Source: Dictyostelium discoideum (Eukaryota). Taken from it: 64,000 nt of DNA. Within the stretch, counting starts at the first letter, position 1, and every line of letters begins with the position of its first letter. Below the pieces are notes generated by a model. It did not search any database. It worked only from the letters and a program-made list of their open reading frames with translations, and was not told the origin of the DNA. The DNA lies in the NCBI GenBank assembly GCA_000004695.1, contig CM000152.2, positions 5,664,001 through 5,728,000 on the forward strand, in the 5' to 3' direction. The position numbers and the translations under genes were made by a program. Below are positions 3,071 through 49,323 of the stretch, in pieces.

Positions 3071-4013
3071 TAAAATGTTTTTTTTTATTTATTATTTGCA
3101 CAGTTGTAATATTATAAATATATTAAAATGAAAAAAAAATAAAAAATTTGCCATTTTAAGTTGTCCTTAGTTTGTCATTTATTGAAAAAAAAAATTAAAA
3201 AAAAAATTATTTAATCTGCAATCTATAAAAAATTTCAAAAAAACACAAACGTGCAAAACAGGGCGGGTGTAATTTTTTTTTTTCTCAACTATTGGAATTG
3301 CCATATCTCCTATATTCAGATTAACAAGAAATAAAAAAAATTTAAGTGTTGTTAAATAAATATTTTTTTTTTTTTTTTTTTTTTTAAAAAATTTGTTTGT
3401 TATTTAAAATTTTATTATCATCTTCATTAACATTGTTTTTAATTAATTAATCTGAAAACTATATGATTTAAGTTCGTAATATGCTATTTTTTTTTTTTTA
3501 AATCTTTTTCAAGTTTTTTATTATTTTTCTTTTCTTTTTTTTTTTTCTTTTTTTTTCTTATTTTTAAATTATTTTTTTTTTTTTTTTTTTTTTTTTAGAT
3601 ATTTGACTCTATTTTTATTATTGGTTAGAGAAAACAATTTAACATAAAATTTTTTAATTAATATTAATTTCAGATAAAAAAGAAAAAAAAAAAATGTTCA
3701 CAGAAGTTATTGTATTATTTATTTTTTTATTTTATTATTTTCATTATTAAAACTTTTTTTTTCTTGTTTATTTATTTTTTTATTATTTTTTTTCCAATTC
3801 TATTATTATAAAACTCCTTTTTATTATATTTTTGTGTACCTTAATAATAAATCACATACATTTACACAAACATACAATTTAATTAAAAAAATTGGTCAAA
3901 AAAAAAAAAAAAAAAATGATCACATTCATTCCATTTAACTATTTCCAAGAAAAAAAAGGAAAATTTTGTTTATTTATTTAGTTATTTTTTTATTTTTTTA
4001 TATAAATATAAAT

Positions 4014-5465
4014 TTATTTTCTTTTTTTAATAATAAAATAATTATCAGGTGATTGATTTGCTAAACCAATTATACCATTTTCATTTAATGGTTTTGAAAG
4101 AACAGGATTTAAAAATTGATATCTATTAATAAGTGTTCCTAATACTGTAAATAATTCACAATCAACAACATTTTTACCAATACAATCTCTACTACCTGCA
4201 CCAAATTGTACTAAATTTGTTGTACCACCACCAAACATAAAATTATTACCACTATCTGAAAATCTTTCAGGATTAAAATCATTTGGTGATTTAAAGAAAT
4301 CTTTTGATTTATGAGATAAGAAAATATTTTTAAATACTTGAGTACCTTTTGAAATTTTATAACCATTTATTTCCATATCTTGAGTTGTAATAATTGGTAA
4401 ACCTAATAAAGCAACTGGAAAATTTCTATAAGTTTCTTTCATTACCATTGAAAGATATGGTATTGATAAACGATATAAACTATGTTTTAAAATAATTAAA
4501 TCATCAATATTATTATTATTATTATTTTTTAATAATTCATTTTTAATTTCATTATAAAGTTTTTCTTGACAATTTGGATTATTAATTAATGCAATTAATG
4601 AAAAATTTAATGAATCTGAAACAGTATCAGTACCACCAACAGTTAAATCAACACAAGTACCAACTAAATTATCCCATGTTATTTTACCATTTTTAAATTC
4701 TTTAAATAATTTTAAAAATATTGTTATATTATTTTCATCATTATCATCATCATAATTATTTTCAATGAATTTTAATTTTAAATTATTTATAATATTTTCA
4801 ATTAAAATTATTAATTTTTTATAAATTTTTAAAAATTTATTTTGATTAATATTTTCAAAATATTTTACTAATGGTATAAAATCAGAAATTATTGGATCAC
4901 CAGCACCTTCAACTAATTCAAGTATTAAATTTATAATTTCAATTATTTTTTCATTATCATATTGATAATTTAAACCAAATAAAAATCTAAATATAATATT
5001 TAATGAAAATAATTTACCATAAAATTTAAATTTAAATGGTAAACCAGATTCACAATGGTTATCTAAATGTTTACATAGTTTTTCACATTCTAAAATTATA
5101 TAATTTTCTTGTTTTTTTAATTTTGTTAATGTCATTTCTGATAATATAATCTTTTTTAAATTTGAATGTGTTTCACCATTGGTAAATGTTAAATCTGAAC
5201 AATTATTAAATTGAATTTTACTACGATATTCATATCTTTTTTGAAAAACATTTGAATTATCAATAAATGATTTCTTTATAATTGGATAACCTGTTAAAAT
5301 TATTGTTTCAATATTACCCATTCTAATTCTATAAATTGGTCCATATTTTTTATACCATTTTTTAAAAACTTTATTTGGATTATTTTTTAATTGATGTAAA
5401 TTACCAATAATTGGTAAACCAATTGGTCCTGGTATTTTTGAATTAATTTTATTAATTCTATTTTT
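4014..5465 (-). CDS. cytochrome P450 paralog 2 (main exon)
   Basis: ORF 4014..5321 extends in frame to a (T)n-CAG acceptor at ~5466 (KNRINKINSKIPGPIGLPIIGNL). Heme loop FGAGSRDCIGKNVVDCE and PERF-like NPERF are present. A hydrophobic anchor-like segment (LILIIIIIILTLFIFEK) lies ~90 bp upstream but no in-frame ATG was found. Confidence 0.85.
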   Translation of the reverse strand, partial: KNRINKINSKIPGPIGLPIIGNLHQLKNNPNKVFKKWYKKYGPIYRIRMGNIETIILTGYPIIKKSFIDNSNVFQKRYEYRSKIQFNNCSDLTFTNGETHSNLKKIILSEMTLTKLKKQENYIILECEKLCKHLDNHCESGLPFKFKFYGKLFSLNIIFRFLFGLNYQYDNEKIIEIINLILELVEGAGDPIISDFIPLVKYFENINQNKFLKIYKKLIILIENIINNLKLKFIENNYDDDNDENNITIFLKLFKEFKNGKITWDNLVGTCVDLTVGGTDTVSDSLNFSLIALINNPNCQEKLYNEIKNELLKNNNNNNIDDLIILKHSLYRLSIPYLSMVMKETYRNFPVALLGLPIITTQDMEINGYKISKGTQVFKNIFLSHKSKDFFKSPNDFNPERFSDSGNNFMFGGGTTNLVQFGAGSRDCIGKNVVDCELFTVLGTLINRYQFLNPVLSKPLNENGIIGLANQSPDNYFIIKKRK

Positions 5466-8586: not shown

Positions 8587-10703
8587 ATGAATTGTGGCGG
8601 AGATAGAAATATATCAAAAGAAGTGTGTTTAGAAGTAATTAATGATTATAGAATGGTATCACTCTGGGAAGAAATGCATAAAGGTCATATAGGAAGAGAT
8701 GCAACCTATGGGAACTACAAGACTAAATATTATAATATGGGATTGTATTCTTTTGTATCTGATGCAGTAGATACGTGTGACATTTGCCAACGAAATAGAA
8801 TAAAAGGTTTGGTATCAATCATTTTTATATGATGTTTTGTAACTTTTATATTAAAACTCTTTTAATAATTTAAATAAATTAATAGGTATAACAAAGGATT
8901 TTGCTCCAATTGTAGATACCGAGGAATACTCAAGATTGGTTTATGATTTAACATCAATTAAAGGTGAACATAAAGAAAAAGTTACATACGATGATGATAA
9001 TGAAAAGATACTAACTAAACTAGATGATCTTATCCAATATGACTCTGTACAACCGTACGACACCGATGTTGTTTACATTATTCTATGCATAGATTCTTTT
9101 ACAAAATTTGCTACTGGAAGGTATTTATTTTTTATTTATTAATTTATTAGTTTTCTTTTTTTATTTTAATTATCATTTATTTTTTAGATGTTTGACAACA
9201 AAGAGAACAGTTCCCATATACAATTTTTTGGCTCTCACGTACTTTGGCAAACCTGTGAAAGTATGGCACTGCGATAATGGACGTGAATTTAAAAACAAAG
9301 TCCAAAAAGAATTCCTAAAACTTTTTCCAGGCTCCAAGTCAGCACATGGAGCTCCTCGTACACCAACAACTCAAGGTATGGTAGAAAGATTGAATCGAAC
9401 TATCAAGGAGAGGATCTCAAAATTAAAACAACAAGAGTATGATATTGTGAACAATATAAATTATCGATATGTTTATTAATTAATCATTTATAAATAAATT
9501 TTAGTTTTCTTGATGGTACTTCTAGGTCTCTTTCTGAACTATTAAAACAAGCTTTGTATGATTACAATAATACAAAAACAAGAACAATTAAAATGACACC
9601 ATCTCAAGCTGTTGGTATTGTTCCTTTGTTTATTAATGTTCAATCAGAACAAGACTCTCAATCAATTGGTGTTTCAGATGTTTCAAAAGAAGAAAGAACA
9701 GCTATTATTCTTGAAAATCTCACAAGTTACCAAAATCAATGGAATTCAAAACCACCAAAGGGATTGAAAGTTGGTGATACTGTACTCTTTCTAGAAATTA
9801 AAAAAAATAATGTAAGTAATTAAAACATAAAGATTAATAATATATGAAACAGTAATAATTAACAAATTTTATATTTAATTCTAATAGAAAATATTGATTT
9901 TGTGTAAAATTCATAAGGTAATACAGGAAGACACTAAACAACTTTATAAACTTGAATTTTTGGAAGATGGAATCAATAGCCTTCAAAAAAAAGGTTTATA
10001 CTCTGGTTTTGTAGGAGGTAACAAGTTGGTTCTTTATAAACAATCAACAGTTGATATTTTTAGAACATCGCCAAACATACAAAAAGATATTGATTCTTTT
10101 ACTTCTGGTCTTTATTTAAATAATGATGGGAAAGTTATTGAATTTCTGGTTCAGTTTATTAAAAATCTTGGTAAGGATTTATCCAATTTCAACTTGCATC
10201 AATTGGTAACACAAAATGATCCATTTAGGGTTTTGGAAGATGCTCTTAACAATCCATCAAATATTCCACCTATCATTAACGATAATCCATTTCAACACAA
10301 ACTCAATAATGAAATGGAACAAGAAGAAATACTCCCATTTTTAAATAATAATCCAACAGCGCCAAATTTAATGAATTGTTTGAGAAAGGATATGAATTTA
10401 AAAGAAATAGTACCACCAATACCTCAAGTGCAAATAATACCATCGTATACTATACCACAATCTGGTAGTGGTATAGTAACAACTGTTAAACGTCTCAGAG
10501 GCCGTCCTCATAAGATACCAATTGTTAATAAACCTCCTTTAAAATCACATTCTAAACCATCCAAATCACCTCTCAAATCACCATCCATTTCACCTTCCAA
10601 TTCACCATTTAAATCACCATTTAAATCACCTTCCAAATCACCATTTAAATCACCTCACAGCAAAGAAAAATGCACCTTTAAAGCAAATTTAAAGAAAAGT
10701 TGA
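8587..10703 (+). CDS. integrase-type transposase (HHCC zinc finger, rve DDE core, SH3-like GDTVLF, AT-hook/SPKK tail), 5 exons
   Basis: Proposed join 8587..8806, 8886..9120, 9188..9436, 9505..9811, 9888..10703. Motifs: HKGH...CDIC (HHCC); LCIDSFT (first D); WHCDNGREF (second D); QGMVERLNRTIKE (E); GDTVLFLEIKK; RGRPHK AT-hook then (SPxK)n repeats. Exon phases are consistent. Confidence 0.75.
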
Positions 10704-15900: not shown

Positions 15901-15956
15901 TTGATTTAGTTAAACTGAACATATAAACAATGTAATGCATCAAAACACAAAAGATT

Positions 15957-16052
15957 CGACGCCTGCAGGATTTGAACCTGCGCCCCCGAAGGGATTGAAT
16001 TACTCTTTTATATGATTCGAGTCCAACTCATTAACCACTCTGACAAAGCGTC
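15957..16052 (-). tRNA. tRNA-Ser(CGA)-like gene with a 15-nt intron
   Basis: Acceptor GACGCTT/AGGCGTC (one G-U); D-loop GAGTGGTTAA; anticodon stem TTGGA/TTCAA with loop CTCGAA(A), anticodon CGA; intron TCATATAAAAGAGTA after position 37; long variable arm CCCTTCGGGGG; T-arm GCAGG-TTCAAAT-CCTGC. Confidence 0.55.
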
Positions 16053-16139
16053 ACAATTTTTAGATGATTTTATCTGCATTTCTCAATTGAAATTAGAGAG
16101 GATAATGTTCATAGTAAACTGAATAAATTTATTCAAATT

Positions 16140-18306: not shown

Positions 18307-18673
18307 TAATTTTTTATTTTTTTTTTTTTACAATTCAATAGAATAATTTAATCGTATATAATACTTATCTCTCTTACATCATATAAATATAGGTTTGTTA
18401 AAATTATAATTTTTTTAAGAATTAATGTATCTTTTTATATTGTAAAATATTAATGAGGTTTACTCTTATTTCAATCATATTAGTTTCATTTTATTTATTG
18501 TCGAAAAGTTATTTAGGCCAAGGCTAGTGAAAAGCTGTATTCAGTGGGCAGAAACTGGACTCACCATATAGATGCAGGCAGTGACTCTTCAGTGAATCGG
18601 AGCAGGTTACCTGAGTGGCAGTCCCTTAATACAAATTAGTTTACTATGAACATTATCCTCACTAATTTCAATT

Positions 18674-18776
18674 TTTTTTTTTGACGCAATTATTAATTGC
18701 TTCTCCCTGAGATGCTAGATCTCATTTTATTTGTAGTTTTTTACAGGGTCTCTAAAAGAGGGGTTAGTTTACTTTT

Positions 18777-18816
<40 letters not shown>

Positions 18817-18846
18817 TATATTTTCTTTAAAAAGTTCTCACTAATT
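18674..18846 (-). mobile_element. retroelement 3'-end fragment (TRE5-like C-module plus oligo(A)) flanked by a 16-bp target-site duplication
   Basis: Insert is bounded by the direct repeat ctcactaatttcaatt (18658..18673 and 18847..18862). Its core (18683..18775) matches the reverse complement of 46078..46165. Has T9 and T47 runs (A-runs on the minus strand). Confidence 0.5.
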
Positions 18847-18894
18847 TCAATTGACAAATGCAGATAAAATCATCTGAAATTTGTGACGCTTTGT

Positions 18895-34400: not shown

Positions 34401-34640
34401 TTTTTATTTATATATGTATATATTTATTTTTTTTTTTTTTTTATTTTTTTTTATTATGCTTTTTTTTTTTAATATTGGTTTTTTACTATTAATTTATTAT
34501 TTTTTTTATTAATAGCAATTAATAAAATTTTTTTTTTTCTTTATTTTCTTTTTTTTTTTTTTTGTTCAATAAAAAAAATTAATTAATTAATTAATTAATT
34601 AAACTTTTATTATTTAAAGGTGGTTGTTGGAATGAAAAAA

Positions 34641-34676
<36 letters not shown>

Positions 34677-35821
34677 GTGTATGGGGTGTAAGTTTAAACA
34701 GAAAAAAAAAAAAATAAAAATAAAAAAGAAAAATAATAAATTAAGTTATTTTTTATTTTATTTTTTTAAAAAAAAAATAAAAAAATAAAAATAATTATTA
34801 TTATTATTAATTAAATAAATAAATAAATAAATAAACAAATAAAATAAAATTTTTTTTTGGGGTTTTTTTTTTTTTTTTAATAATGCACAAAAAAAAAATA
34901 TATATATATTTATTTGTGTATGAATTGTAGTTAATGGAATGATGATGTGTGATGGATGTAAATTTTTTGTGTGTTTGTTATTTTTAATTATTTTAATTTT
35001 TTTTTTTAATTTTTTTTTTTTTTTATTTAAAAATTATTATTGCAATTATTATAATTATTATAATTATATCAAATTATTATTATTTTTATCACTATTATTA
35101 CTATTATTACTATTATTGCTTTTATTATGGGTTTTTTTTTTTTTTTTTTAAAAGATTAAAATAAAAAAAAATAATAAAAAATAAAATAAAATAAAATTTT
35201 ATTATTATTTATTTTTAAATTTTTTGATATGGGTATCTCGCATTAATAATATAGATATATGGTGTGTTTTTTATGAGTGTGTGAGCTCACGAATAAGAGG
35301 TGTGTGATATAAATTTTTTTTTTTTTTTTTTTTTTTTAATTTTTTTTTTTTTAAAATTTATATATATTTTTTTTTTATATAAGTAAAACTTTAATTTTAT
35401 ATAGTTTTTTTAATTTTTTTGAATGTGTAAATAGCAGTCTTGTATGTAAATTTATAAAGTGGATTATTTATTTTAGATTAAAAAAAAAAAAATTGAAAAA
35501 TAATTAAAAAAAAAAAAAGTAAAAAAAAAAAACTTTGTGCGTACTCTTTCGTTCAAATCTAGATTCATATAATTTTTATATGAAAAAAAAAAAAAAATCA
35601 AAAAATAAAATGAAAAAAAAAATCAAAAAAAAAATCAAAAAAAAAAAAAAAAAAAAAAAAAAAACAAAAATAAATAAAAAAAAACAAAAAAATTCTGATA
35701 AAATAAAAAATAAAAAATAAAAAATAAAATTAATAAAAAAAAAAAAAAAAAAATATTTATATGATTTATTTGAAAAATTTTAAATTAAAAAATAATTTTA
35801 TTTAATTAATTAAAATAAAAA

Positions 35822-38800
35822 TTAAACGGTTGCTTCAATTGGTTTCTCAGACTTTAAATTTGGCGAGAATTTTAAAACTGAATAAGGAATATTTGAGGTT
35901 AAACTTGGTGCAATACTATTAATTAAACTATTACCATTATTATTGATATTATTATTACTATTATTATTGATATTATTATTTAGACCATTATTATTATTAT
36001 TATTATTATTGATATTATTGATATTATTCATATTATTATTAGGATTATTATTATTAGGATTATTATTATTATTATTATTAATAATTTGTTTTCTTGATTT
36101 ATCTTTAAAGAATAAAACGATAATTAAAATGACAACAGCACAAATTGCAATATAACCAGTGATAGCTAATTGTGAAGAATCGGTTTCATTTGGATAACGA
36201 TCACTACCACGAGTATTTGGTACGGTTAGAGGTGGAATAACTTTATCACGTTGTTCCCATGTGATATTTAAGTATTTCTCTAAATTGGGCCATTGTGGAT
36301 CAGGGAATTGATTTGGATAGATTTGATTACCACAAGTTTGAGCCAACATGACCGATTCAGGTTTACTAACGATCTTGGAAAACTTTTTCATCTCTTTAAT
36401 TGAACCACTATCGGTTGTTCTACTTGGTAGTTCCAATTGTTTTAATGATTTTGAAATTGGTAATAACGGTCTATGTAATGTGCCAATGGTTGGGAAATAA
36501 TTGGTAATTGAAGGACTACCCTCTTTCAATACTGATAAAATATCTTCAATTAACCAAAAACAATCTAACCTATTCTTATCCTTATTTGGTGATTCATCTA
36601 AACAATTTGAATCACCAAATACAACAATATTACCACTTGAATAAATTGAATTATCTTCTTTTTTTTCTTTATTCTTTTTATTATTATTATCACTATTACT
36701 ATTATTATTATTACTATTGCTATTATTACTATCACTATTACTGTTGGTACTACTACTACTACTAGTACTACTACTAGTATTATCAACAATACTATTATCA
36801 GAACTATCTTGAGTTGATTCATCATCATTATTATTAATACTTGATTCAATATTATTATTATTTTTTAAAATTCTTTTTGAAATTATAGTTGAATTTGAAT
36901 CATTAGTTGAATCAGAACTATCAGAACTATGTTCATTTTCTAAAGTTGTTGGTTGAAAGAAACCTAATACAGGTACTTTTGATTGTGAAGTTCTACCTTT
37001 AGTGATGAGACGAGTTTGATCTACTAATGAAGCTTCTAAAATTTTACCACCAGCAGGGAAACCAATGATAGAGGTACCTGATGAAAATGTTGAAACTTTA
37101 TTACCTACAGAGAATTCACCATTGTAAATACTATCACCAAAATAAATTCCAAACACTGATAGGAAATCATTGAGAGCTGGTACATTTGAACCACCAGTAG
37201 CGGGTGACCATAATTGTTGAGTATTATCATCATGAAATTCAATTAATTTCATCACCTCGGTATTATACCAATCTGCGAAAACTATTAAATTCAAACCATG
37301 ATTTCTAACATCCTCTTCAATCTTTTTAATTTCTGATGGTAAAAACTCTTCCTCTGGGTCAATGATCATCAATGTACCATAGTTTGATGGATTGAAACAA
37401 GTCAATGGTGAGCCAATCACCTCTACAAAGTAACCCAATTGTGTTAACTTTCCATAAAGTTTTCTAAAATTGGTATGAATATGATCACCATTCCAATCGA
37501 ATGGTTCATTCTTTGTTTCCAATGAATCACGTGGGAAAAATCCTAATGGATAACGTAGATTATGAAATTGATCCCAAAGTATACGACGTTCTCTTGGTGG
37601 TTTTGGTATAATTTGAACACGTACAGGTAATTGTATTGTATAATAATTTCTAGATAATGTTGATTTAATATTATTATTGTTGATATTATTATTATTATTA
37701 TTATCAATTGCAATTATAACTTCAACAGAACCTTCAGCAACACCATTAAATGATTGTGATTCTTCAGGTACAGTAAAGAAAATACCTAAATGACCAGTCC
37801 ATGGCCAAATGGTTGATTGATAAGAAAAGTCAACTTTTAAATGATGACCATTTCTAGAGGCATTCCAATAGGTGTTTACAATTTCACCACTTACACTAAT
37901 ACCATTTAGAATGGTAGCATTCACAATGATTGGCATTGAGGTATGATAAAGTTTTTGAGTACAATAAGGCCAGAGGTATGGACATGTATCTTTATTAGTT
38001 GGTAAGAAATCCAATTGTGATGGTGATATGGTTATCTTGGGTCTGTAATGATCCAATAGGCTCTTTGCACCCAATACGTTCAATTTGCCATTACCCTGTT
38101 CGAAAATACCTGCATTTTTAATTTTTTCAGCACTTTCAATGAGAACTTGCTTCATTGAGGAGGGGTTGATAATGCTTTTATCCTTCACAGTTGAGATTAG
38201 CAATGCAATGGCACCACTCACCACTGGTGAAGAGACTGAAGTGCCCGATAATGCTTTACAATTATCATCATGACCATTCAATGGCGAGCCGTAAACACCC
38301 GATCCATAGGCCACGATGTCTGGTTTAACCCTACCATATCCATGTGGTAGTTCCCATGTGGTCATACCTCTGCTAGAGAATGATGCCAATTGGTCGTTGT
38401 AATCTATACCACCCACACCAATCACATCGGATTGGTCGGCTGGGTTATTTAAAGTACCATACAACGGACCGTCATTGCCAATGGCCGAAACCACAATGAT
38501 CTTATTTGCAGACACTTCCCACACCTTTTCAACAAATGGTTTATCCATGAAATCAGGTCCACCAATTGAAAGATTCAATACGTCAACTTTGGTTAGAATC
38601 ACATGATTGAAGGCATCAATGAACCAACTTGTGAATGAAACCTTCTCAGAATTGAAAACCCTATAGATATAAATCTCTGCATCTGGTGCAAAACCCATAC
38701 ATTTCTCTGAGGAACTTGCAATTATACCCGTAACAAATGTACCATGACCAATGGTATCAGTATTACTCTTTTTCTTATTTTCAACTTTTTCACGTGCCCA

Positions 38801-39110
38801 ATCGGTTATCTCTACAACATTTGAAAAATGAGGATGATCCTTTGCCAAACCTGTATCAAATACTGCAACTTTTGTACCTCTACCTGTGAATCCTTGATTC
38901 CACAATTTCCTCACATTAAACAAATCCGTAATCTGTATATGATCATTAATCGATTTCAATTTTCTACCAACACTTTGATTATAATCTCTACCATTCATCT
39001 CTAAATCAATCATTTCTTCTGGTATCTCTTGATGAATTCTACCATACATTTTTAAATTATCATTAATTTCATTATCATTTTTATTATTATTATTTTCATC
39101 ATCTTCATTT

Positions 39111-39151
<41 letters not shown>

Positions 39152-39817
39152 ATTATCATCTTCACTACTTGTTTGCCATTTTTTTAACATTGATTCATGA
39201 ATTTTTCTTTCTGGAAATATATGTTTAATATTTGAATCTTGTGATAGAATTTTTAAAATTGGATCTAATGATGATTGTTTATTACTTGTGATTTCTACTA
39301 ATGCAAAATCAGATGGATATTTTGAAGCTGGATTATTTCTTGGTATAATTTTCCAATCAATTAATTGATTTTGATTTTTTATACTTTGTTTTATCTTTTT
39401 TTCATTTCTATTAAGAATTTCATTTAAATAAGATTGATGCTCTTTTTGATCAATATACTTTTTAAACATTATTATATATTCTTTTACTAAATTATTTTTA
39501 TTTTTATTTTTAAATTCATTATCATTTATTAATAATGGTGATACATTTGTTGATGTTTTTATTATTGTTGTTGTTGAACAATTATTATATTCTTTAAAAT
39601 TTACAAAATTATTATTATTATTATTATCATTATTGTTATTATTATTATTATTACTATTATTATTATTATTATAAGCTACTACTACATTTTTACTATTACT
39701 ATTTAAATTATTATTATTATTATTTTTATTATTAAAAATATTTAAACTATCACTATATAAAAAAATTAAAATAAATGTTATGGTAAAAAACCATTTATAG
39801 TTTATTATTGTAATCAT
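35822..39817 (-). CDS. subtilisin-like serine protease, site-1 protease (S1P/MBTPS1)-like, signal peptide plus C-terminal TM
   Basis: Catalytic triad contexts VAVFDTGL (Asp), GHGTFVTGIIAS (His), GTSVSSPVVSGAIALL (Ser); N-terminal hydrophobic signal; C-terminal TM ITGYIAICAVVILIIVLFF; 1331 aa, single exon. Confidence 0.8.
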
Positions 39818-39985
39818 TTTTTTTTGATTTTTTTTATTTTGATTTTTTTTATTCTTTTTCTTATTCTTTTTAATTTTTTTAAATTTTTTTATTATTATAA
39901 TTTTTTTATATACATATAGATTTTGTTGGTGAGTAGTTTTTTTTAGTGCGAGAAAAAAAGAGTTATGTGAAAAAAAAAAAAATTT

Positions 39986-40022
<37 letters not shown>

Positions 40023-40422
40023 TAATTTTTTTTTTTTTTATTTTTATTTAATTTTTTTAATTGCCTTTCCGAGAATCCACATCTTTTTACACAAAAAAAA
40101 AAAAAACAAAAAAATATAAAAAAAAACTAAAAAAAGATAAAAAAGATAAAAAAAACCAAAAAAGAATAAATAAAAATAAAAAAGATATAAATAAGAAATA
40201 ATAAAATTTAATCGTTTCGTTTTTAGAAATCGAGCTGTAAAGTTTTTTTTTTTTTGAAATTTAACAAATCTTATCTTTTTGGAACAATAAAATTTAAAAA
40301 TAAATATCCATTTATTGATTTATTGTTATTTTAAAATTTTATTGTTAATTTTATTGTTTTGTAATTATTGTTATAGTTTTATTATTACTATTTTTCTTTA
40401 TTAAAGAAACTTTTTAAATAGT

Positions 40423-40671
40423 TTAAAGACCAGCTTTATTTAAACTCTCAGCAACATTAAACAATAAACCACTAACTAAACCAGTTTGGACTTTATTTTC
40501 AGTGAATTGGATCATTGAGTTTTTATTATCAATCAAGGTTGATTTGGTTGAGTTAACTTTAGAGATTGATGAAATTGAAGCTAAATTAAAATAAATTAAA
40601 ATTATTAGTATTTTTTTTTATTTTTTATTTTTTTTTTTTTTCCCAATATTTTAATAATTAATATTTACCAA
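40423..40671 (-). CDS. small (56 aa) protein, paralog A of a divergent gene pair
   Basis: join 40659..40671, 40423..40580. MSLF|ASISSISKVNSTKSTLIDNKNSMIQFTENKVQTGLVSGLLFNVAESLNKAGL, with a phase-1 intron after the 13-nt first exon. Confidence 0.5.
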
Positions 40672-41170
40672 AGAGAGACATTTTTTAATTATTTGATTAT
40701 AATTGATTGTTTTGATTTGATGAAATTTTTTTTTATTTTATCTTATTTATACTTTTTTTTTTTTTAATGATAAATTTTTTTTTTTTTTTTTTTTTTTATT
40801 TTTATTGTTATTGTTGATTTTAATTTTTTGTAAAAGAGAATACCCAATAAAAAGAAATATTTTAAAAAATTATAGTATTAAATGTCGTGAATTAATTTAA
40901 ATTAATCTTTGACATTTTAAAATTGTAATTCGTTTTAAAATTTTGTAAAATTGTTTTCAAAAATTAATTAGTTGTAAATCATTTTTTTAAAAAATTATGG
41001 GGTCAAAGAAATAATAATATACTCATTAATTAATTAATTGTTTTTTTTTTTTTTTTTTAACACACAACTACCAAATAATTAGTATTTTCTTCATTTTTTT
41101 CGGTAATATTTTAAAAATTATACCTTAAATCTTCGGCTAATTAAATATTAAAAATAATTTATTTATTATA

Positions 41171-41207
<37 letters not shown>

Positions 41208-41278
41208 GATATATAAATAATCATTTTTTTTTCTTTTTTTCAAAAACATAAATCAAATAAAACTAATCAAAATTTAAA

Positions 41279-41529
41279 ATGTCTCTCTTTGGTAAATATT
41301 TATGGTTTATATATATTTTAATATTATAAAAAACAATTAATCTAATTTTTAATTAATAAATGAAGATTCAATTTCTTCAATCTCCAAAGTTATTTCAACA
41401 CCAAATAAGTCATATTTGAATAATAATAAAAATTCAATGGCCCAATTCACTGAAAATAATGTCCAATCAGGTCTCGTTAGTGGTTTATTATTTAATGTTG
41501 CTGAAAGTTTAAATAAAGCCGGTCTTTAA
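41279..41529 (+). CDS. small (58 aa) protein, paralog B
   Basis: join 41279..41291, 41366..41529. MSLF|DSISSISKVISTPNKSYLNNNKNSMAQFTENNVQSGLVSGLLFNVAESLNKAGL, with the same intron position as paralog A. Confidence 0.5.
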
Positions 41530-42516
41530 AATAAAACCTTTAAAAATGTCAAATCCATTTATCTAATATTACAATTACAATTAATAAAATTACGTCATTA
41601 TTTTTGAAATTTTAAAATATTTAAAAACAGATTTTTTTTTTTAATTTTTTTATTTTTTAAAATTGTGTTAATTTTATATTTATAATTTTATCCCCGATAA
41701 AAATTTTAACCCCTAAATTTATTTTAATATAGGAAATAAATAAAAAAATAAAAACCCAACAATAAAAAAACAAAAAAAAAAAAAAAAATAAAAACAAAAA
41801 AAAGAAATAAAAATATTATAAAACCAGAAATTTAAAATAACTAAAACTTTAAAAATTACAATTAAAATAAAAAAAAAAAAAAACAATAACATAAAACAAT
41901 GTTATTTATTAATTTTAACGAAAGTGATATAAAAAATATTGGTTCAAATTCAACAATTTTATCAAACCATTCAAATTGTAATATATTCCCAAATGATGAA
42001 AATTATTTAAACAATATTAAAAATAATGAAAGAAGTAATATAGATCAAACCATCCTTTGTCTAACTTCAAAATTTCAAAATTTAAATTATCAATAAAAAC
42101 CAATAATTAATAAATTTTTATTACTACATAGGTTTTTTTTTTTTTTTTTTTTTTTTTTCGAAACCCAGACAGTAAAAAATAAAAGATTATTTATTTTTTT
42201 TTATTTTTTGTGTAATAATGTTTAAAATTTATATTAGAATTTTTTTAAAATAAAAAGGAATTAGTTTATTTATGAATTTTTTTTTTTTTTTTTAAGATAA
42301 TAGTTTAAAATATATATAAAATTAATTAAATAATATCCAATTAGAGATTATTTTATTTTGGGTGCATTAAATTGACCTATATGTTGCGATTAAGTTTTTC
42401 AATTATTGGTATTGTCAAAAAACAATAATACATTTTTTCAGTGTTATTTTTTTGGGCCATTTGGTTGACTCTGTTTTTGAACGAAGTTCGGATTTTGTTC
42501 TACCAAGTAAAAATTT

Positions 42517-42587
42517 TGCGTATGCCGGGAATCGAACCCGGTTCAACTGCTTGGAAGGCAGCTATCATACCACTAGACCACATACGC
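42517..42587 (-). tRNA. tRNA-Gly(UCC), copy 1
   Basis: GCGTATGTGGTCTAGTGGTATGATAGCTGCCTTCCAAGCAGTTGAACCGGGTTCGATTCCCGGCATACGCA. Cloverleaf with anticodon loop CTTCCAA, T-arm CCGGGTTCGATTCCCGG, acceptor GCGTATG/CATACGC. Near-identical to metazoan tRNA-Gly-UCC. Confidence 0.9.
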
Positions 42588-42953
42588 TTTGTTGATGATT
42601 TTTTGTAGTTAATGCTCAAATAAGTTTTAATAAAAAATTTGATTATTTACACACGTAGCACAACCATCAAACCTCAATAAATATATTACATCACTCAACA
42701 CACTCTACCCCCAACTTTAAAAAAAAAAAAACCATATAAGGTAAAAAAGGCACCTGTAAAATATTTAATAATAAAACGAGATATATCTCAAGAAAAAGCA
42801 ACTAAAAATTGCTTTATTCCATTCAAAAAAAAAAAAATTTTGATTATTTTTTTTTTATTTATTTATATATTTATTTTTAAATACGCTTCATTGATGAATT
42901 TTTTAATGAATTATGAACGAAGTTCGGATTTTGTTTTACCCAAGCAAAAATTT

Positions 42954-43024
42954 TGCGTATGCCGGGAATCGAACCCGGTTCAACTGCTTGGAAGGCAGCT
43001 ATCATACCACTAGACCACATACGC
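42954..43024 (-). tRNA. tRNA-Gly(UCC), copy 2 (tandem duplicate)
   Basis: Identical 71-nt sequence within the second unit of the tandem duplication. Confidence 0.9.
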
Positions 43025-43074
43025 TTTGTTAATGAGATTTTTGTAATAAAGTCACTCTATAAAATTAATATTAA

Positions 43075-44268
43075 GCAAAGTAGATGATACGGTGAACAAA
43101 CTGGAAAACCTCACAAAATGCTATTCGAGCGTGTCATCAACGCTAAAAGGTAGAATCACAATCCTCAAATCATACCTGCTGTCCCAACTAACATTCCAAC
43201 TATACATCAACGAAATAAATGACATAAAGAAACTGGAGAACGTTAATGCCAACATGTTATTCAAAGGGGACAGGTGGGCTATCTCAAAAGAAAGGAGCAG
43301 AAGAGACTATGAAATTGGAGGCCTGGAACTCTGGAATATGGCAACCAGATCCAATGCCCAGAAAGCATGGATATACGAACAATACCTCAGAGAAAAAGAC
43401 GACCAGAACTGCCCTCCACATATGGAAGTCTGGAAGTCGGAAAAAGAAAACTCACTATCAAGGATTCACATCAAATGCTGGAAAGCCTGGAAGTTGTTGC
43501 ACCACCCAAGAGAGCGAATAACTCTCAAACTAAACCAAGTCAAACCCAAATACGAAAACAAACAAAAATTAAAAGTAATCTATAGAAACATGATGGATAT
43601 CAAATACAAGGGATGGAACAAACACCAGCCAACAACAGGTCAAAAACTGATTCAAAAGAACATTAATCACCCAATTCTACCATTCAGAGAAGCCAGATCA
43701 ATCACAACTATCAAAGGAAGAGACTTAGCATGGAGATATCTACTCAAGGCACTTCCAAAACACCATGGGGAGAATTGCCACTCATGTAAAGAAGAAGAAT
43801 CGTCTATGCACATCTTCTTCGAATGCAAATCAATAAAACAGAATATCGACTCAATCTATCAAAAGGTCTGTAAAGACTCCAACAACACTTACCACGGTCC
43901 ATGGAGCGAAAAAGTTCTCGGAAAACTACTCACACCATTCTCATCAAATCTGATAGGAGCCATTATGGAATCGATATGGTACAGAAGAAATCAAATAAAA
44001 TTCAACGATAACACTACAATAATAACAGAGACCCAAATAATTCATAAAATCAAAAAAGCGAGAGATGCCGAATGGGATAGAACAAGAAAGATAGTAGAAA
44101 AACAACTACGTCAAGAACTAAGATGCACTGATAACCGAGAGTCAATCAATCGGACCGCATCAATAAAAAGAAGACTCGAAAAATTCAGCCACAACTGGAA
44201 CTCGAAACTCATGCCCATAAACATCCCGGAACACTTCATACCATACTGCTCATATAACACCAACTACT

Positions 44269-44313
<45 letters not shown>

Positions 44314-44436
44314 ATAACAATAATAATAATAATAATAATATAATAATAATAATAATATAATAATAATAATATAATAATAATAATAATATAATAATAATAA
44401 TAATAAAAAAAAAAATAAGAATAACAAGAAAAAAAG

Positions 44437-44470
<34 letters not shown>

Positions 44471-44527
44471 AAATAAACTCTCATAGAACACACTCAAATT
44501 GAGTGATGTTATTAAAAAAAAAAAAAA
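43075..44527 (+). mobile_element. 5'-truncated tRNA-targeted non-LTR retrotransposon copy A (ORF2 C-terminal part, family X)
   Basis: ORF 43092..44273 is homologous to the C-terminal region of the RT ORF at 13651..15879 (AKTYALS-type segment, CCHC HSCKEEESSMHIFFECK). 3' UTR with (AATAAT)n and terminal ...gagtgatgttatt plus A15. Flanked by the 11-bp direct repeat attaatattaa (43064..43074 and 44528..44538). Its 5' end faces tRNA-Gly copy 2, ~50 bp upstream. Confidence 0.7.
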
Positions 44528-44538
44528 ATTAATATTAA

Positions 44539-45687
44539 CTCAACTTCATCAACCTATATGGGCAGACTCATAATGGCAAAAACATATGCACTATCTCAGT
44601 TAACGTTCCACACTTACATCAACACCACACCACAACACAATAGTATTGAAAATAACATCGTAAAATTTGTTTTCAACACAAAATCTAAAAACTCTCTTTC
44701 ACTACAAAGAAGACAAAACAACTATATCAATGGTGGCCTAAACTTATGGAACCTGAAGACAAGAGAACTAGCACAGAAAGCATGGCTATTCGAAAGATAC
44801 CTCCACCAAAGAGTAAGTAACACTCCTAGTTCATATATAAAACTGTGGGAAGAGGAACTCAAAAACAACAACAACAACAAAACAACAACAAAACAAAAGC
44901 AACTACAACTACACTGGCAATGCAAGCAAGCATGGACCCAATTAAAAACTCCACAAAATAAACAAACACATTACGAACACCTCCCAAAATTAAAAAAAAT
45001 ATACGAGGATATGATGACAACTCAATCTCCTGAACACAACAAATTCATACCAACTCCTGGCCAAAAAGAAATAATGACCAAAATTAATAGCAAACACCTT
45101 CCATTTAAAGAAATCAAAAAAATAATAAACATGAAAGGTAGAGATCTATTATGGAGATACACACTGAAAGCACTACCAAAAATATACAACATGCCATGCC
45201 AACAGTGTGGGGAAGATGAGACTTCAGAACATATATTCTTCAACTGCAAAGCCCACATCAAAAACACACAAGAAATCTTCAACTACACCCTAACTAAGTG
45301 TGGACACACCACTCACACCTGGAATGTGAAGATTTTAAACCATCTACAAATTGCACTAGTAGCCAATTTAATAGCTATTATATTCGAAAAAATCTGGCAC
45401 AAAAGAAATAAACTCATTCACGATGAAAAAGAAATAATAATTCACAGACAACAAGTCATACGTGAACTAATTAAAACACAAAGAGCTGCATGGGACAGGA
45501 CACAAGCGGTTATAAACAAAACATTAAGAATCAAATCAAAGCAACGGCCAGAAGAACAAAATAAATTAGACTCACTAATCTCGCTAAAGCTATTACAATT
45601 TAGCAGACAATGGAACTCACCTCTTCATGCAATAGAACTTCCTAAACATCTCAAAAAATACAATAATTCACTCAGTACTTTCTATAA

Positions 45688-45736
<49 letters not shown>
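44539..45736 (+). mobile_element. 5'-truncated non-LTR retrotransposon copy B (different family, ORF2 C-terminal part)
   Basis: ORF 44558..45691 is paralogous to copy A (AKTYALSQLTFHTYI, CQQCGEDETSEHIFFNCK). Ends in a ~48-nt poly(A). Confidence 0.7.
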
Positions 45737-45739
<3 letters not shown>

Positions 45740-46031
45740 GGAACCCAAGTTAATCAGAAAATTTCCAGATTTTTAACTTTTTAAAGAAAAATAAAAAAGA
45801 TAGAAAGAAAATAAAATGAAAATCACAAACAACACCACAAATATTAAGCAACACAAATGCCTACAAAAAATAAGCGAAATTGTGGATAAAACTCAATTAA
45901 AAAAAAAACAATTCAAATACGTCATAAACATCAATCACGAACCAGACGATAAAATAAAAAAAGATTTAGAAAAAAGTTTGGACAAAAAAGATGTTTTAAT
46001 CAAAAGTAATAATACAATTCAAAATTCGAAA

Positions 46032-46069
<38 letters not shown>

Positions 46070-46190
46070 TAAACCAACCCCTCTTTTAGAGACCCTGTAA
46101 AAAAAAAAAAAATAAAATAAAATAAAATGAGATCTAGCATCTCAAGGAGAAGCAAATAATAATTGCGTTATCCAATTCAAAAAAAAAAAA
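45737..46190 (+). mobile_element. retroelement 3' region with TRE5-like C-module and terminal oligo(A)
   Basis: The 46078..46165 module (cctcttttagagaccctgtaaaa...gagatctagcatctcaaggagaagcaaataataattgcgtt) is also found inverted at 18683..18775. A12 at 46179..46190 is followed by a copy of the 15-bp TSD tctataaaattaata. Confidence 0.55.
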
Positions 46191-46205
46191 TCTATAAAAT
46201 TAATA

Positions 46206-46252
46206 GACCCGGAACACTTCATACCATACTGCTCATATAACACCAACTACTC

Positions 46253-46283
<31 letters not shown>

Positions 46284-46338
46284 AACAATAATAATAATAA
46301 TAATAATATAATAATAATAATAATAAAATAATAATAAT

Positions 46339-46372
<34 letters not shown>

Positions 46373-46385
46373 TAAGAATAACAAG

Positions 46386-46437
<52 letters not shown>

Positions 46438-46497
46438 AAACTCTCCTAGAACACACTCAAATTGAGTGATGTTATTAAAAAAAAAAAAAAAATTAAT
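46206..46497 (+). mobile_element. extreme 5'-truncated 3' end of a family-X retroelement (older insertion)
   Basis: ~93% identical to 44222..44520 (cccggaacacttcatacc...(AATAAT)n...caaataaactctc.tagaacacactcaaattgagtgatgttatt plus A-run). Confidence 0.7.
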
Positions 46498-46801
46498 AGA
46501 TATTAAATATGCTTATTACATTACTAATTATAGTTGACACACATTTAAATAATATAATAATAATAATAATAATAATACTGTCAACTCATTATAAATAATA
46601 TAAATACTAAAGAATAATTTTATTAACAATATTGAATATCATAAAATATATATTAATATTAAATAAAGATAACAAAATATTATTCAATTATATAATTATT
46701 AATTATATATATTATAAAGTTAACAAGCTTCATTACATTTTGAAGTAAATGCTCAAACAAGTTTTATATCAAATAATTTTATTTTTTTATCAATTTTATT
46801 T

Positions 46802-48216
46802 TTAAATGCAAGTGGGTATGTAACAACATTTCCCGCAATCATTTGGATCCGCCTCATTATAACAAAATGGAGCCAGTATATATTTACACTTTGAACCTTC
46901 TGATTTTTCACAATCCAAAGAATCACAAGATAAACAATCTGATTGAAATTTAATACATTTTGGTCGAATTTTATCAGATAAGTGGTAGTGTTCCACGCAA
47001 ACTGAGTCGTGTGGACAGGTATAATTTTGGCAAATGGATTTATGAGGTATATTTATTTCTTCGATTGGAACTGTAATAATAATGTGTGACCCATCAACAA
47101 TATACCCAGATGATTGATAACCGGTATCAATGCTAGAAGTTGGGTCGCTAGTATAAAATGATGTTGAGGTGGCTGATCCTGTTGTTGGAGTTGTTGTTGC
47201 TGATCCTGTTGTTGATCCTGTTGTTGGAGTTGTTGTTGCTGATCCTGTTGTTGATCCTGTTGTTGATCCTGTTGTTGCTAATCCTGTTGTTGGAGTTGTT
47301 GCTGATCCTGTTGTTGCTGATCCTGTTGTTGCTGATCCTGTTGTTGCTGATCCTGTTGTTGCTGATCCTGTTGTCGGAGTTGAAGAAGCTGTTATTGTTG
47401 TTTCTTTGCCTGTTGTTGAAGTTTTTGAGGTTGTAGTAGATGCTAGTCCTGTACTTGAAGTTAATGTCGATCCAGTTGTTTTTCCTGTACTTGAAGCTGG
47501 AGTAGTAGTCTTTCCTATTGTTGATCCAGTTGTAGAGGTAGTAGTCTTTCCTATTGTTGTTAAAGTTGTTGAAGTAGGGGTCTTTCCTACTGTTGATCCA
47601 GTTGTAGGGGTAGTAGTCTTTCCTATTGTTGATCCAGTTGTAGAGGTAGTAGTCTTTCCTATTGTCGTTAAAGTTGTAAAGGAAGGGATCTTTCCTATTG
47701 TTGTTAAAGCTGTTGAAGTAGTGGCCTTTCCAGTTGTTGAAGTTGAAGGTGCTGTAGTGGTAGTTGTAGGTGATGTAGTGGTAGTTGTAGGTGATGTAGT
47801 GGTAGTTGTGGGTGATGTAGTGGTAGTAGTTGTTAATGTTGTGGGTGATGTGGTGGTGGTGGTTGTAGCTCCTGTTGTTGAAGTTGTAGGTGATGCAGTT
47901 GTTGTTATTGTTGTTGTTGTTGTTTTTCCTATAGTTGGTCCTACAGTTGTTGTAGAGGTTGTGGGTGATGTGGTAGTTGTTGTTCCTGTAGTTGTGGAAG
48001 TTGTAGGTGATGTGATGGTTGTTGCCCCTGTAGTTGTAGGTGATGTGGTGGTTGTTGTTGCTCCTGTAGTTGTAGGTGATGTGGTGGTTGTTGTTGCTCC
48101 TGTAGTTGTTAAAGTAGTGGTCTTTCCTGTTGTTGATACATTAGTTGTTGAAGTTGTAGGTGATGTAGTGGTTGTTGTTGTTCCTGTAGTTGTTGATGTT
48201 GTGGGTGATATAGTGG

Positions 48217-48254
<38 letters not shown>

Positions 48255-48272
48255 GCTGTTGTTGTTGTTGCT

Positions 48273-48305
<33 letters not shown>

Positions 48306-49232
48306 CCAGTAGTTGTAGAGGTTGTAGGTGATGTTGTTGTTGCTCCTGAAGTTGTGGATGAAGTAGCCATTCCTGTTGTATTTGTTATTGTAGTGGTCCC
48401 CACACATTGTGGAGTTTTTGAGCAACAATGAGATCCTAAACATTGTGTGGTTTGGACATACTCACATGGTGATCCTTGACAGTCAATTTCTGAACATTTT
48501 TGAGCTTTAATTTTAAATAAAAAAAAAAAAAATAAAAAAAAAATTAGGGGTTATTTTTATTTTTTTTAATTAATCACTAATTTCATAAAATACTTACGAG
48601 GTATGTTATAAACTTCAAAATCTTTTTGAGGTATACATATAGACCAAAGCTCGATGATTTGATTAGTTGATTTTTGAATGACACATGATAAATTATTTCT
48701 ATAACAATGATTCAAAGGATCATTTATACATACATTAACTTGTTGACCACAACAACCAGGAAATACCAACCATTTACAATTGGGGTAGTATGAATTACAA
48801 TTTTGTTCAACGGTAATATCTTCACAATCAACTATTTAATAATAATTTTTAATTTTAATTTTTTTTTTTTTTTTTTTTTTTTTAACTAATAATTATTATT
48901 ATTTACTTACAATCATTTCTTGGGAGAGTTGTTCGTCCAAGATTTGTTGGCGCAAAACTGGGTGAGCATGTGTCATCTATGCAACTGGTTCCCTCTGGAC
49001 ATAAATTTGTAAGTGTACATGACCCATTGAAACACATATTTTTTAGGCAACCATTATCGTTGGTAGTGTCACATTCTACTGATGAGTATCGACATCCTTT
49101 TCCTTCAACACAAGATTCTATTGTACATGGATCGGAATCATCACATTTCAATTTACTGCAAGGTTCAATTGAATTTACTAAATAAAATAATAAAAATAAA
49201 TTAATAATTAATAAAAAAATTATTTTTAATTT

Positions 49233-49235
<3 letters not shown>
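46802..49235 (-). CDS. secreted Thr-rich mucin-like protein with N- and C-terminal Cys-rich domains, 3 exons
   Basis: join 48911..49235, 48598..48831, 46802..48504. Signal peptide MKLKIIFLLIINLFLLFYLVNS; Cys-rich modules (CDDSDPCTIESC..., CCGQQVNVC, CEYVQTTQCLGSHCCSK); ~400 aa of degenerate TSPTTSTTTG/T-rich repeats; C-terminal Cys cluster ...CGKCCYIPTCI. Confidence 0.7.

Positions 49236-49323
<88 letters not shown>
49236..49323. repeat. ~88-nt uninterrupted poly(T) (poly(A) on the gene's sense strand) abutting the mucin-like gene start codon
   Basis: Homopolymer directly 5' of the ATG of the minus-strand gene. Confidence 0.9.

Follow-up and report, generated by a model that had tools for sequence, protein, structure and literature searches.

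TRE5-A.1, formerly called DRE, is a tRNA gene-targeted retrotransposon of Dictyostelium discoideum, of the type without long terminal repeats (non-LTR) and of the L1 clade. Its published structure is AB-ORF1/ORF2-BC (ORF, open reading frame), with a 290-bp B-module that carries the ORF1 start and a 134-137-bp C-module at the 3' end (PMC3159450). TRE5 elements are reported to integrate 47 ± 3 bp or 44-54 bp upstream of tRNA genes, under the strict rule that the element's 5' end faces the 5' end of the tRNA gene (PMC5391098, PMC5911963), and their target-site duplications (TSDs) measure 10-16 bp (PMC9012585). TRE3 elements lie on the downstream side of tRNA genes, at a distance of ~100 bp (40-150 bp). 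The yeast elements Ty3 and Ty1 resemble TRE5 in that their position is set by the RNA polymerase III (Pol III) complex (TFIIIB/TFIIIC) and that the same tRNA genes are used repeatedly; they differ in being LTR elements with an integrase, whereas TRE5 integrates with an APE endonuclease and by target-primed reverse transcription, which give oligo(A) tails, 5' truncations and variable TSDs. Tagged TRE5-A is reported to have integrated at 91 of 98 tRNA genes already carrying a TRE5-A, giving tandems (PMC5391098), and nanopore reads placed a new copy "above" a resident TRE5-A.2 (PMC9012585). Here we describe a tandem pair of tRNA-Gly(UCC) genes and the retroelements stacked beside them in a 64-kb stretch of D. 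discoideum DNA (contig CM000152.2, positions 5,664,001 to 5,728,000, assembly GCA_000004695.1), the whole of which is called the window and numbered from its first letter. The data point with high confidence to three independent TRE5 target-primed reverse-transcription events in one slot 46-50 bp upstream of copy 2 of the tRNA gene. That TRE5 elements integrate serially at tRNA genes already occupied has been published before, and the locus is a clean but ordinary example of it. As in the TRE5-A(bsr)/TRE5-A tandems (Spaller et al. 2017, PMC5391098; Barth et al. 2022, PMC9012585), integration occurred at a fixed distance at an occupied site and gave a head-to-tail stack whose youngest copy adjoins the tRNA gene; in contrast to those mostly experimental cases, the stack in the window is natural, mixes two families (X, A, X, see below) and keeps all three TSD pairs.

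The window has a G+C content of 21% (A+T 79%), and its two tRNA-Gly(UCC) genes are identical in sequence, 71 nt each, within a 135-bp duplicated unit (42475-42607 vs 42911-43045, 94.8% identity). Since copy 2 is on the minus strand, its upstream side lies to the right of position 43024, the +1 of the tRNA. On this side, three 5'-truncated non-LTR elements follow one another on the plus strand, each with a terminal oligo(A) and its own TSD: copy A of a family here called X, then a TRE5-A.1 copy, then a short outer X fragment (Table 1). The repeat strings and coordinates of a preliminary description of this DNA were all correct in the window, and the head-to-head arrangement that it had claimed under the TRE5 rule was recovered, with the tRNA genes on the minus strand, the elements on the plus strand and every oligo(A) distal. 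Measured from the tRNA +1, the 5' junction is at 50 bp for copy A and at 46 bp for TRE5-A; for the X fragment it is at 47-48 bp in the reconstructed empty site. These distances and the orientation are in agreement with the published TRE5 windows and rule, and the TSDs, of 11(-14), 15 and 9 (8-12) bp, respectively, fit the reported 10-16 bp. The hallmarks of target-primed reverse transcription, namely an oligo(A) tail, a 5' truncation and a variable TSD, are present in all three elements, together with the bases ttaa at the TRE5-A junction. The 15-mer tctataaaattaata that flanks TRE5-A occurs twice in the 64 kb, both times at the junctions, with 0.01 occurrences expected from shuffled sequences and two or more in 0 of 100 shuffles. 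The TSD of copy A is composed of 7 nt of this older TSD and of 4 bases (ttaa) from the TRE5-A junction, and the outer X fragment has a TSD of its own, attaataga, absent from the preliminary description.

The most direct evidence comes from the orthologous locus of another D. discoideum assembly (L004; GCA_054883475.1, CM142509.1:5774818-5795936). The window segments 34573-43074 and 44525-49255 align with L004 1474-9966 and 9953-14651, respectively, and abut there with a 14-bp overlap, copy A being absent and the 11-mer attaatattaa being present once, at 9956-9966. The L004 junction reads ...tctataaaattaatattaa|ctcaacttcat (in longer form aaagtcactctataaaattaatattaa|ctcaacttcat), which is exactly the predicted pre-insertion junction, and this shows that copy A was the last to insert. 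The TRE5-A copy, the 15-mer, the X fragment, both tRNA genes and a TRE5-C-like piece are all kept in L004. About 15-20 genuine single-nucleotide differences were counted between L004 and the window over 19.6 kb, so that they represent different isolates, between which copy A is polymorphic as an insertion. The comparison with an empty site in another strain, suggested in the preliminary description, thus succeeded for the newest step, and its scenario of serial insertions with overlapping TSDs, in which the outermost element is the oldest and copy A the latest, is strengthened by the nesting of the TSDs and, for copy A, by L004.

The history of the slot could then be written as follows. The reconstructed empty site would have read tRNA-...gtaataaagtcactctataaaattaatagatattaaatatgc.... 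In a first step, a 284-bp family-X copy would have entered ...tctataaaattaataga|tattaaatatgc..., duplicating (a)ttaataga; in a second step, a 1.65-kb 5'-truncated TRE5-A.1 would have duplicated tctataaaattaata and added 2-4 bases (ttaa) at its 5' junction; and in a third step, the one shown by the empty allele, the 1.45-kb copy A duplicated attaatattaa, each at the distance given above. The order of the first two steps is the one that the nesting of the TSDs suggests. At each step, the APE endonuclease would nick the DNA at a distance fixed by the tRNA gene with its bound TFIIIB/TFIIIC, the TRE5-A ORF1 protein being described in the literature as binding TFIIIB subunits. Target-primed reverse transcription would start from the oligo(A) end and often stop early, leaving a 5' truncation, and each new copy would come to lie between the tRNA gene and the previous copy. 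Since the distance is measured from the tRNA gene, a site already occupied would stay a target and the older copies would be pushed outward. A TFIIIB-guided mechanism may be assumed for this locus by analogy with the literature. The three stacked copies are dead on arrival, without promoter, ORF1, endonuclease or reverse transcriptase domain.

Table 1. Coordinates of the tRNA genes, retroelements and target-site duplications in the window
Feature	Position	Strand	Remarks
tRNA-Gly(UCC) copy 1	42517-42587	minus	ARAGORN and Rfam RF00005, 68 bits
TRE5-C-like 3' fragment	42649-42837	plus	ORF2 tail match, diverged C-module
tRNA-Gly(UCC) copy 2, targeted gene	42954-43024	minus	ARAGORN and Rfam RF00005
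15-bp TSD of TRE5-A, left	43056-43070	plus	tctataaaattaata
Copy A TSD, left	43064-43074	plus	attaatattaa, 11 bp (up to 14 bp with leading A's)
Copy A, family X (TRE5-B-like), 5'-truncated, newest insertion	43075-44527	plus	ORF; absence from L004
Copy A TSD, right	44528-44538	plus	attaatattaa
5'-truncated TRE5-A.1, middle insertion	44539-46190	plus	97.7% identity over 1669 bp to one L001 element
15-bp TSD of TRE5-A, right	46191-46205	plus	tctataaaattaata
X-fragment TSD, left	46199-46207	plus	attaataga, 8-12 bp depending on A's; overlaps the 15-mer by 7 nt
Outer X fragment, 284 bp, 5'-truncated, presumed oldest insertion	46208-46491	plus	matches copy A 44225-44527; also in L004
X-fragment TSD, right	46492-46500	plus	attaataga, runs into the original upstream flank

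Several points weigh against this history and have to be considered with the explanations that they favor. Repeats of 9 and 11 bp are individually common in DNA of 79% A+T: attaatattaa occurs 8 times in the window (6 of them away from copy A, 2.55 expected) and attaataga 6 times (3.33 expected), while attaata is found in every flank and the TSD of a related element at another locus of GCA_054883475.1 (L001) also begins with ttaata. The flanking repeats could thus be chance matches in AT-rich DNA, or conserved element ends, and the serial same-site history would be over-interpreted. We regard this explanation as refuted and give it next to no weight, given the rarity of the 15-mer and its exclusive position at two junctions, the unrelated flanks of other TRE5-A and X copies (ttgaaattagtgag, ttcattacaaa, tatacattct) and the empty L004 allele, where the 11-mer is host sequence, single before the insertion. 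The 11-mer is considered real despite its weak count because it is placed exactly at both ends of copy A and because the L004 allele is empty. That the direct repeats are host duplications and not element termini, a point on which the preliminary description depended, is also seen at other copies, which share the terminal bases and carry unrelated TSDs. The 3' ends of TRE5-A type at L001, at two loci of other assemblies (L002, GCA_054859355.1; L003, GCA_054859385.1) and at window 18672-18836 all read ...ccaattc/gcgtc(A)n and are followed by differing sequences that match their own other side, and an X-like element of L002 ends in ...gggtgatgttatt(A)n followed by the TSD ttcattacaaa, not by ttaata.

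The absence of copy A from L004 could formally be due to a precise deletion between the 11-14-bp TSD copies, since a deletion of this type would produce the very sequence that L004 has; the events and their order would remain the same. Such a loss appears unlikely, the precise excision of a 1.45-kb non-LTR insert via an 11-bp repeat being rare relative to insertion polymorphism, and the 399-codon frame of copy A being still open, which suggests a young copy. No allele without the TRE5-A copy or without the outer X fragment was found, so that the order of the first and second insertions is taken from the TSD nesting only. Moreover, the tail of copy A and the outer X fragment are near-identical (91 of 92 nt of unique sequence), which fits either a source of the same family or copying between them. 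The array could in that case result from local rearrangement (unequal crossing-over, gene conversion or segmental duplication between X copies) and not from three retrotranspositions, the outer fragment being for example copied from the copy A tail, or the reverse, and the tRNA unit has itself been duplicated (42475-42607/42911-43045; 46729-46787/42592-42648). However, every unit has its own oligo(A) and its own TSD, nested in the right order, the two X copies differ in the length of their oligo(A) and microsatellite tracts, and stacks of this pattern are present at unrelated tRNA genes. The outer fragment is also present in L004, where copy A is lacking, and hence does not derive from copy A; local rearrangement is thereby largely refuted and we consider it very improbable compared with three separate insertions. 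A last reservation concerns the name TRE5-B for family X, which is given by description only, and another strain carries a second family devoid of C-module (family Y, 54% amino acid identity to X).

The middle element has the layout of the canonical TRE5-A.1 3' part. The ORF2 C-terminus (44540-45691) is followed by an oligo(A) (45692-45736), a B-module of 292 bp (45737-46028) that carries the ORF1 ATG at 45816, an A-run with the C-module (46029-46178) and a final oligo(A) (46179-46190), the 111-nt terminal module ending in ...gcgttatccaattc. The four C-module bases mutated in PMC3159450 (T15, C26, A35 and C38 from the 3' end) are all present, position 1 being 46178, and the last 54 nt are predicted to form a two-stem fold (minimum free energy -11.3 kcal/mol, z -2.65). 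The 372-aa ORF of this element (44573-45691) is identical to AX4 DDB_G0282405, which falls in a cluster of AX4 RT-zinc-finger fragments; an exact look-up of the 377-aa version of the ORF gave no record, the match being to the 372-aa ATG-2 version. On the basis of this structure, the C-module bases and the AX4 ORF identity, the element is identified from its sequence as TRE5-A.1. It shares with TRE5-A.1 the order ORF2/B-module/C-module/oligo(A), the positions of the mutated bases and the two-stem fold, as well as the upstream head-to-head location at 46 bp, the 15-bp TSD and extra bases at the 5' junction; it differs in consisting of the last 1.65 kb of a 5.7-kb element and in being non-functional.

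The preliminary description had taken this block for a fragment "B" joined to a TRE5-like 3' module, possibly chimeric. This idea is ruled out by the 97.7% end-to-end identity with a single element of L001, aligned as one contiguous block; that element is likewise 5'-truncated, lies 45-48 bp upstream of a tRNA-Met gene and carries the TSD ttaataaatata, unrelated to those of the window. Between the left 15-mer and the TRE5-A body lie 4 nt, ttaa, which represent either additional bases of the 5' junction or microhomology. The element possibly starts at 44537, the aa found there being a possible microhomology with ...ggaactcaac, as in L001.

Copy A contains the C-terminal 399 codons of an ORF2, uninterrupted to 44273 and with a CCHC zinc knuckle. 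After it come an oligo(A)/(AAT)n tract and a unique 3' end, which contains a hairpin (44471-44513), before the oligo(A) tail. The outer X fragment contains the last 15 ORF2 codons, the 3' untranslated region (UTR) and oligo(A). In the alignment of 46208-46498 with 44225-44534, the overall identity is 90% because the oligo(A) and (AAT)n lengths differ, the non-repetitive parts being identical at 48 of 48 and 43 of 44 positions. The preliminary description had seen in the outer piece an old element reduced to its 3' 290 bp. A remnant truncated by later insertions is ruled out by the TSD of the fragment itself, which means that it was inserted already as a short 5'-truncated copy.

The ORF2 tail of family X is 37% identical in amino acids to that of TRE5-A. 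The C-terminal ~390 residues are present in both tails and the CCHC knuckle is visible in both; Pfam gave zf-RVT alone, below threshold (E 0.042), and longer relatives carry RVT_1. The best database matches of the retroelement ORFs of the window are at 99% identity, in D. discoideum. A search for similarity to the B- or C-module in the 3' UTR of X (44274-44513) found none. Three independent X insertions (copy A, the outer fragment and the L002 copy) lie 46-50 bp upstream of a tRNA gene with the 5' end facing it. More generally, all X and TRE5-A-type copies seen are upstream of tRNA genes, at 45-61 bp and with the 5' end facing, which argues against TRE3 and bears out the assignment to TRE5 in the preliminary description. 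The 3' end of X reads ...aacacactcaaattgagtgatgttatt(A)n and forms a hairpin. A stem of ~10 bp directly before the oligo(A) was noted at 44487-44510 and 46451-46474, and at L002 11810-11835, where it is kept by a compensatory change (ctc/gag to ccc/ggg); it may be a functional counterpart of the TRE5-A C-module stem-loops, by analogy.

TRE5-B is described as a TRE5 element without C-module and without 3' B-module (PMC3159450, PMC4559204). Since X behaves as a TRE5 element and also has neither of these modules, it fits TRE5-B, an attribution made by elimination from published descriptions. In favor of this attribution are the position upstream of tRNA genes, the homology of the ORF2 tail to that of TRE5-A and the absence of both modules at the 3' end. 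A near full-length X-like copy at L002 (~80% nucleotide identity to X) has the same 3' end and a B-module-like 5' UTR with the ORF1 ATG; the difference to be kept in mind is that its identity to the X of the window is of ~80% only. Alternatively, one of the families X and Y could be a sister of TRE5-B that has not been described or, less likely, an eighth, undescribed TRE family.

The copy A polymorphism hints at recent activity of family X, a family not known to be mobile. It is quite possible, and we propose it tentatively, that X, usually seen as a low-copy relative of TRE5-A, has recently been retrotransposing in natural D. discoideum, and that the slot was used by it before and after TRE5-A. 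If this is true, stacked arrays resolved by their TSDs would provide a clock, in relative terms, of when the three TRE5 families were active. What is modestly new is the presence of a TRE5 family devoid of C-module twice in the slot, from near-identical sources (91 of 92 nt unique), and what is new is the presence/absence polymorphism of a family-X copy between two D. discoideum isolates. The window stack extends the experimentally known behavior of TRE5-A to a second family, without C-module. The locus opens no new mechanism or element class; it is a compact natural record of how a "safe" landing site, defined by the Pol III machinery, is used again by position-specific retrotransposons.

Between the two tRNA genes, a further fragment contains the last ~23 ORF2 codons, an oligo(A), a diverged C-module and (A)13, and is flanked by the 11-bp TSD tttgattattt (42638-42648 and 42839-42849). 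The distance from its 5' junction to tRNA copy 1, on the upstream side of that gene, is 61 bp, somewhat beyond the usual 44-54 bp. The ORF tail THVAQPSNLNKYITSLNTLYPQL* matches the tail of P0159, which is in the cluster of AX4 DDB_G0293280 (P0008), the latter having 54% identity to the TRE5-A tail. Compared with the last 87 nt of the TRE5-A C-module, the C-module of the fragment shows 75-82% identity, depending on the treatment of gaps, and its two-hairpin fold is similar. For TRE5-C, 78% identity to TRE5-A over the last 87 nt has been published, the C-module being directly after ORF2 without a 3' B-module (PMC3159450). The fragment 42649-42837 fits TRE5-C by this structural description. The tandem tRNA-Gly pair would thus carry pieces of all three TRE5 families, the B and C names being taken from descriptions.

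Stacks with a threefold TSD are also found in two other strains, at tRNA-Phe (L002) and at tRNA-Leu (L003), and TRE5-type junctions at other loci lie 45-48 bp upstream of the tRNA. Upstream of tRNA-Phe, at L002 3116-11860, an element of TRE5-A type, present from its A-module, is stacked on the near full-length X-like element; the two have one and the same 11-bp TSD, ttcattacaaa, present three times. The TRE5-A-type element carries a ~0.55-kb foreign AT-rich insert with inverted-repeat flanks (about 3825-4400), and the X-like element seemingly contains an insertion of ~2 kb between 9103 and 11123. At L003 7804-9772, the copy of family Y (P0010, P0011, P0014), which is without C-module and was seen in GCA_054859385.1 only, lies 45 bp upstream of tRNA-Leu(UAA) on an older fragment consisting of a C-module only, with the TSD tatacattct present three times.

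Other resemblances to the tRNA unit were noted around the stack. The segment 46729-46787, ~230 bp to the right of the elements, is 79.7% identical over 59 bp (E 2.6e-8) to 42592-42648, the upstream flank of tRNA copy 1, and 42881-42905, just downstream of copy 2, is a short stretch resembling the tRNA 5' end and its flank. Their sequences suggest that parts of the tRNA unit may have been duplicated at earlier times. In the conserved downstream flank of the tRNA-Gly genes, a comparison by eye with GTCnnnnGTTCRAnYC gave no convincing match to an extragenic B box. About 350 bp downstream of tRNA copy 1, at 42129-42175, a (T)30 run is followed by cgaaacccagacag; it was considered as the 3' end of a minus-strand retroelement (TRE3?) and dropped, since no TSD or homologue was found.

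Among the flanking genes, exact database look-ups of a 110-aa ORF, of a 1331-aa S1P-protease ORF and of a 1203-aa ORF returned no record, and a homologue search with the S1P-protease gene listed no D. discoideum orthologue, the candidate list being probably saturated by poly-N words. Between this gene and the tRNA genes lie two small, similar, intron-containing ORFs in inverted orientation (40400-40700, minus, and 41280-41530, plus), both starting with MSLFGK..., where the L004 annotation calls no gene. Elsewhere in the window, on the minus strand at 18672-18836, a fragment of TRE5-A type of ~165 bp consists of a few bases of the B-module start, an A-run and the C-module, and is therefore without most of the B-module when compared with 45737-46028. 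It is flanked by the 14-bp TSD ctcactaatttcaa (at 18658 and 18837), and a tRNA-like copy that is 3'-truncated and contains an intron starts at 18885 on the plus strand, with the 5' junction of the fragment 48 bp upstream of it. The intact paralogue of this copy is located on the complementary strand at 15956-16053; ARAGORN calls it Thr(CGT) with a 15-nt intron, although it resembles a tRNA-Ser.

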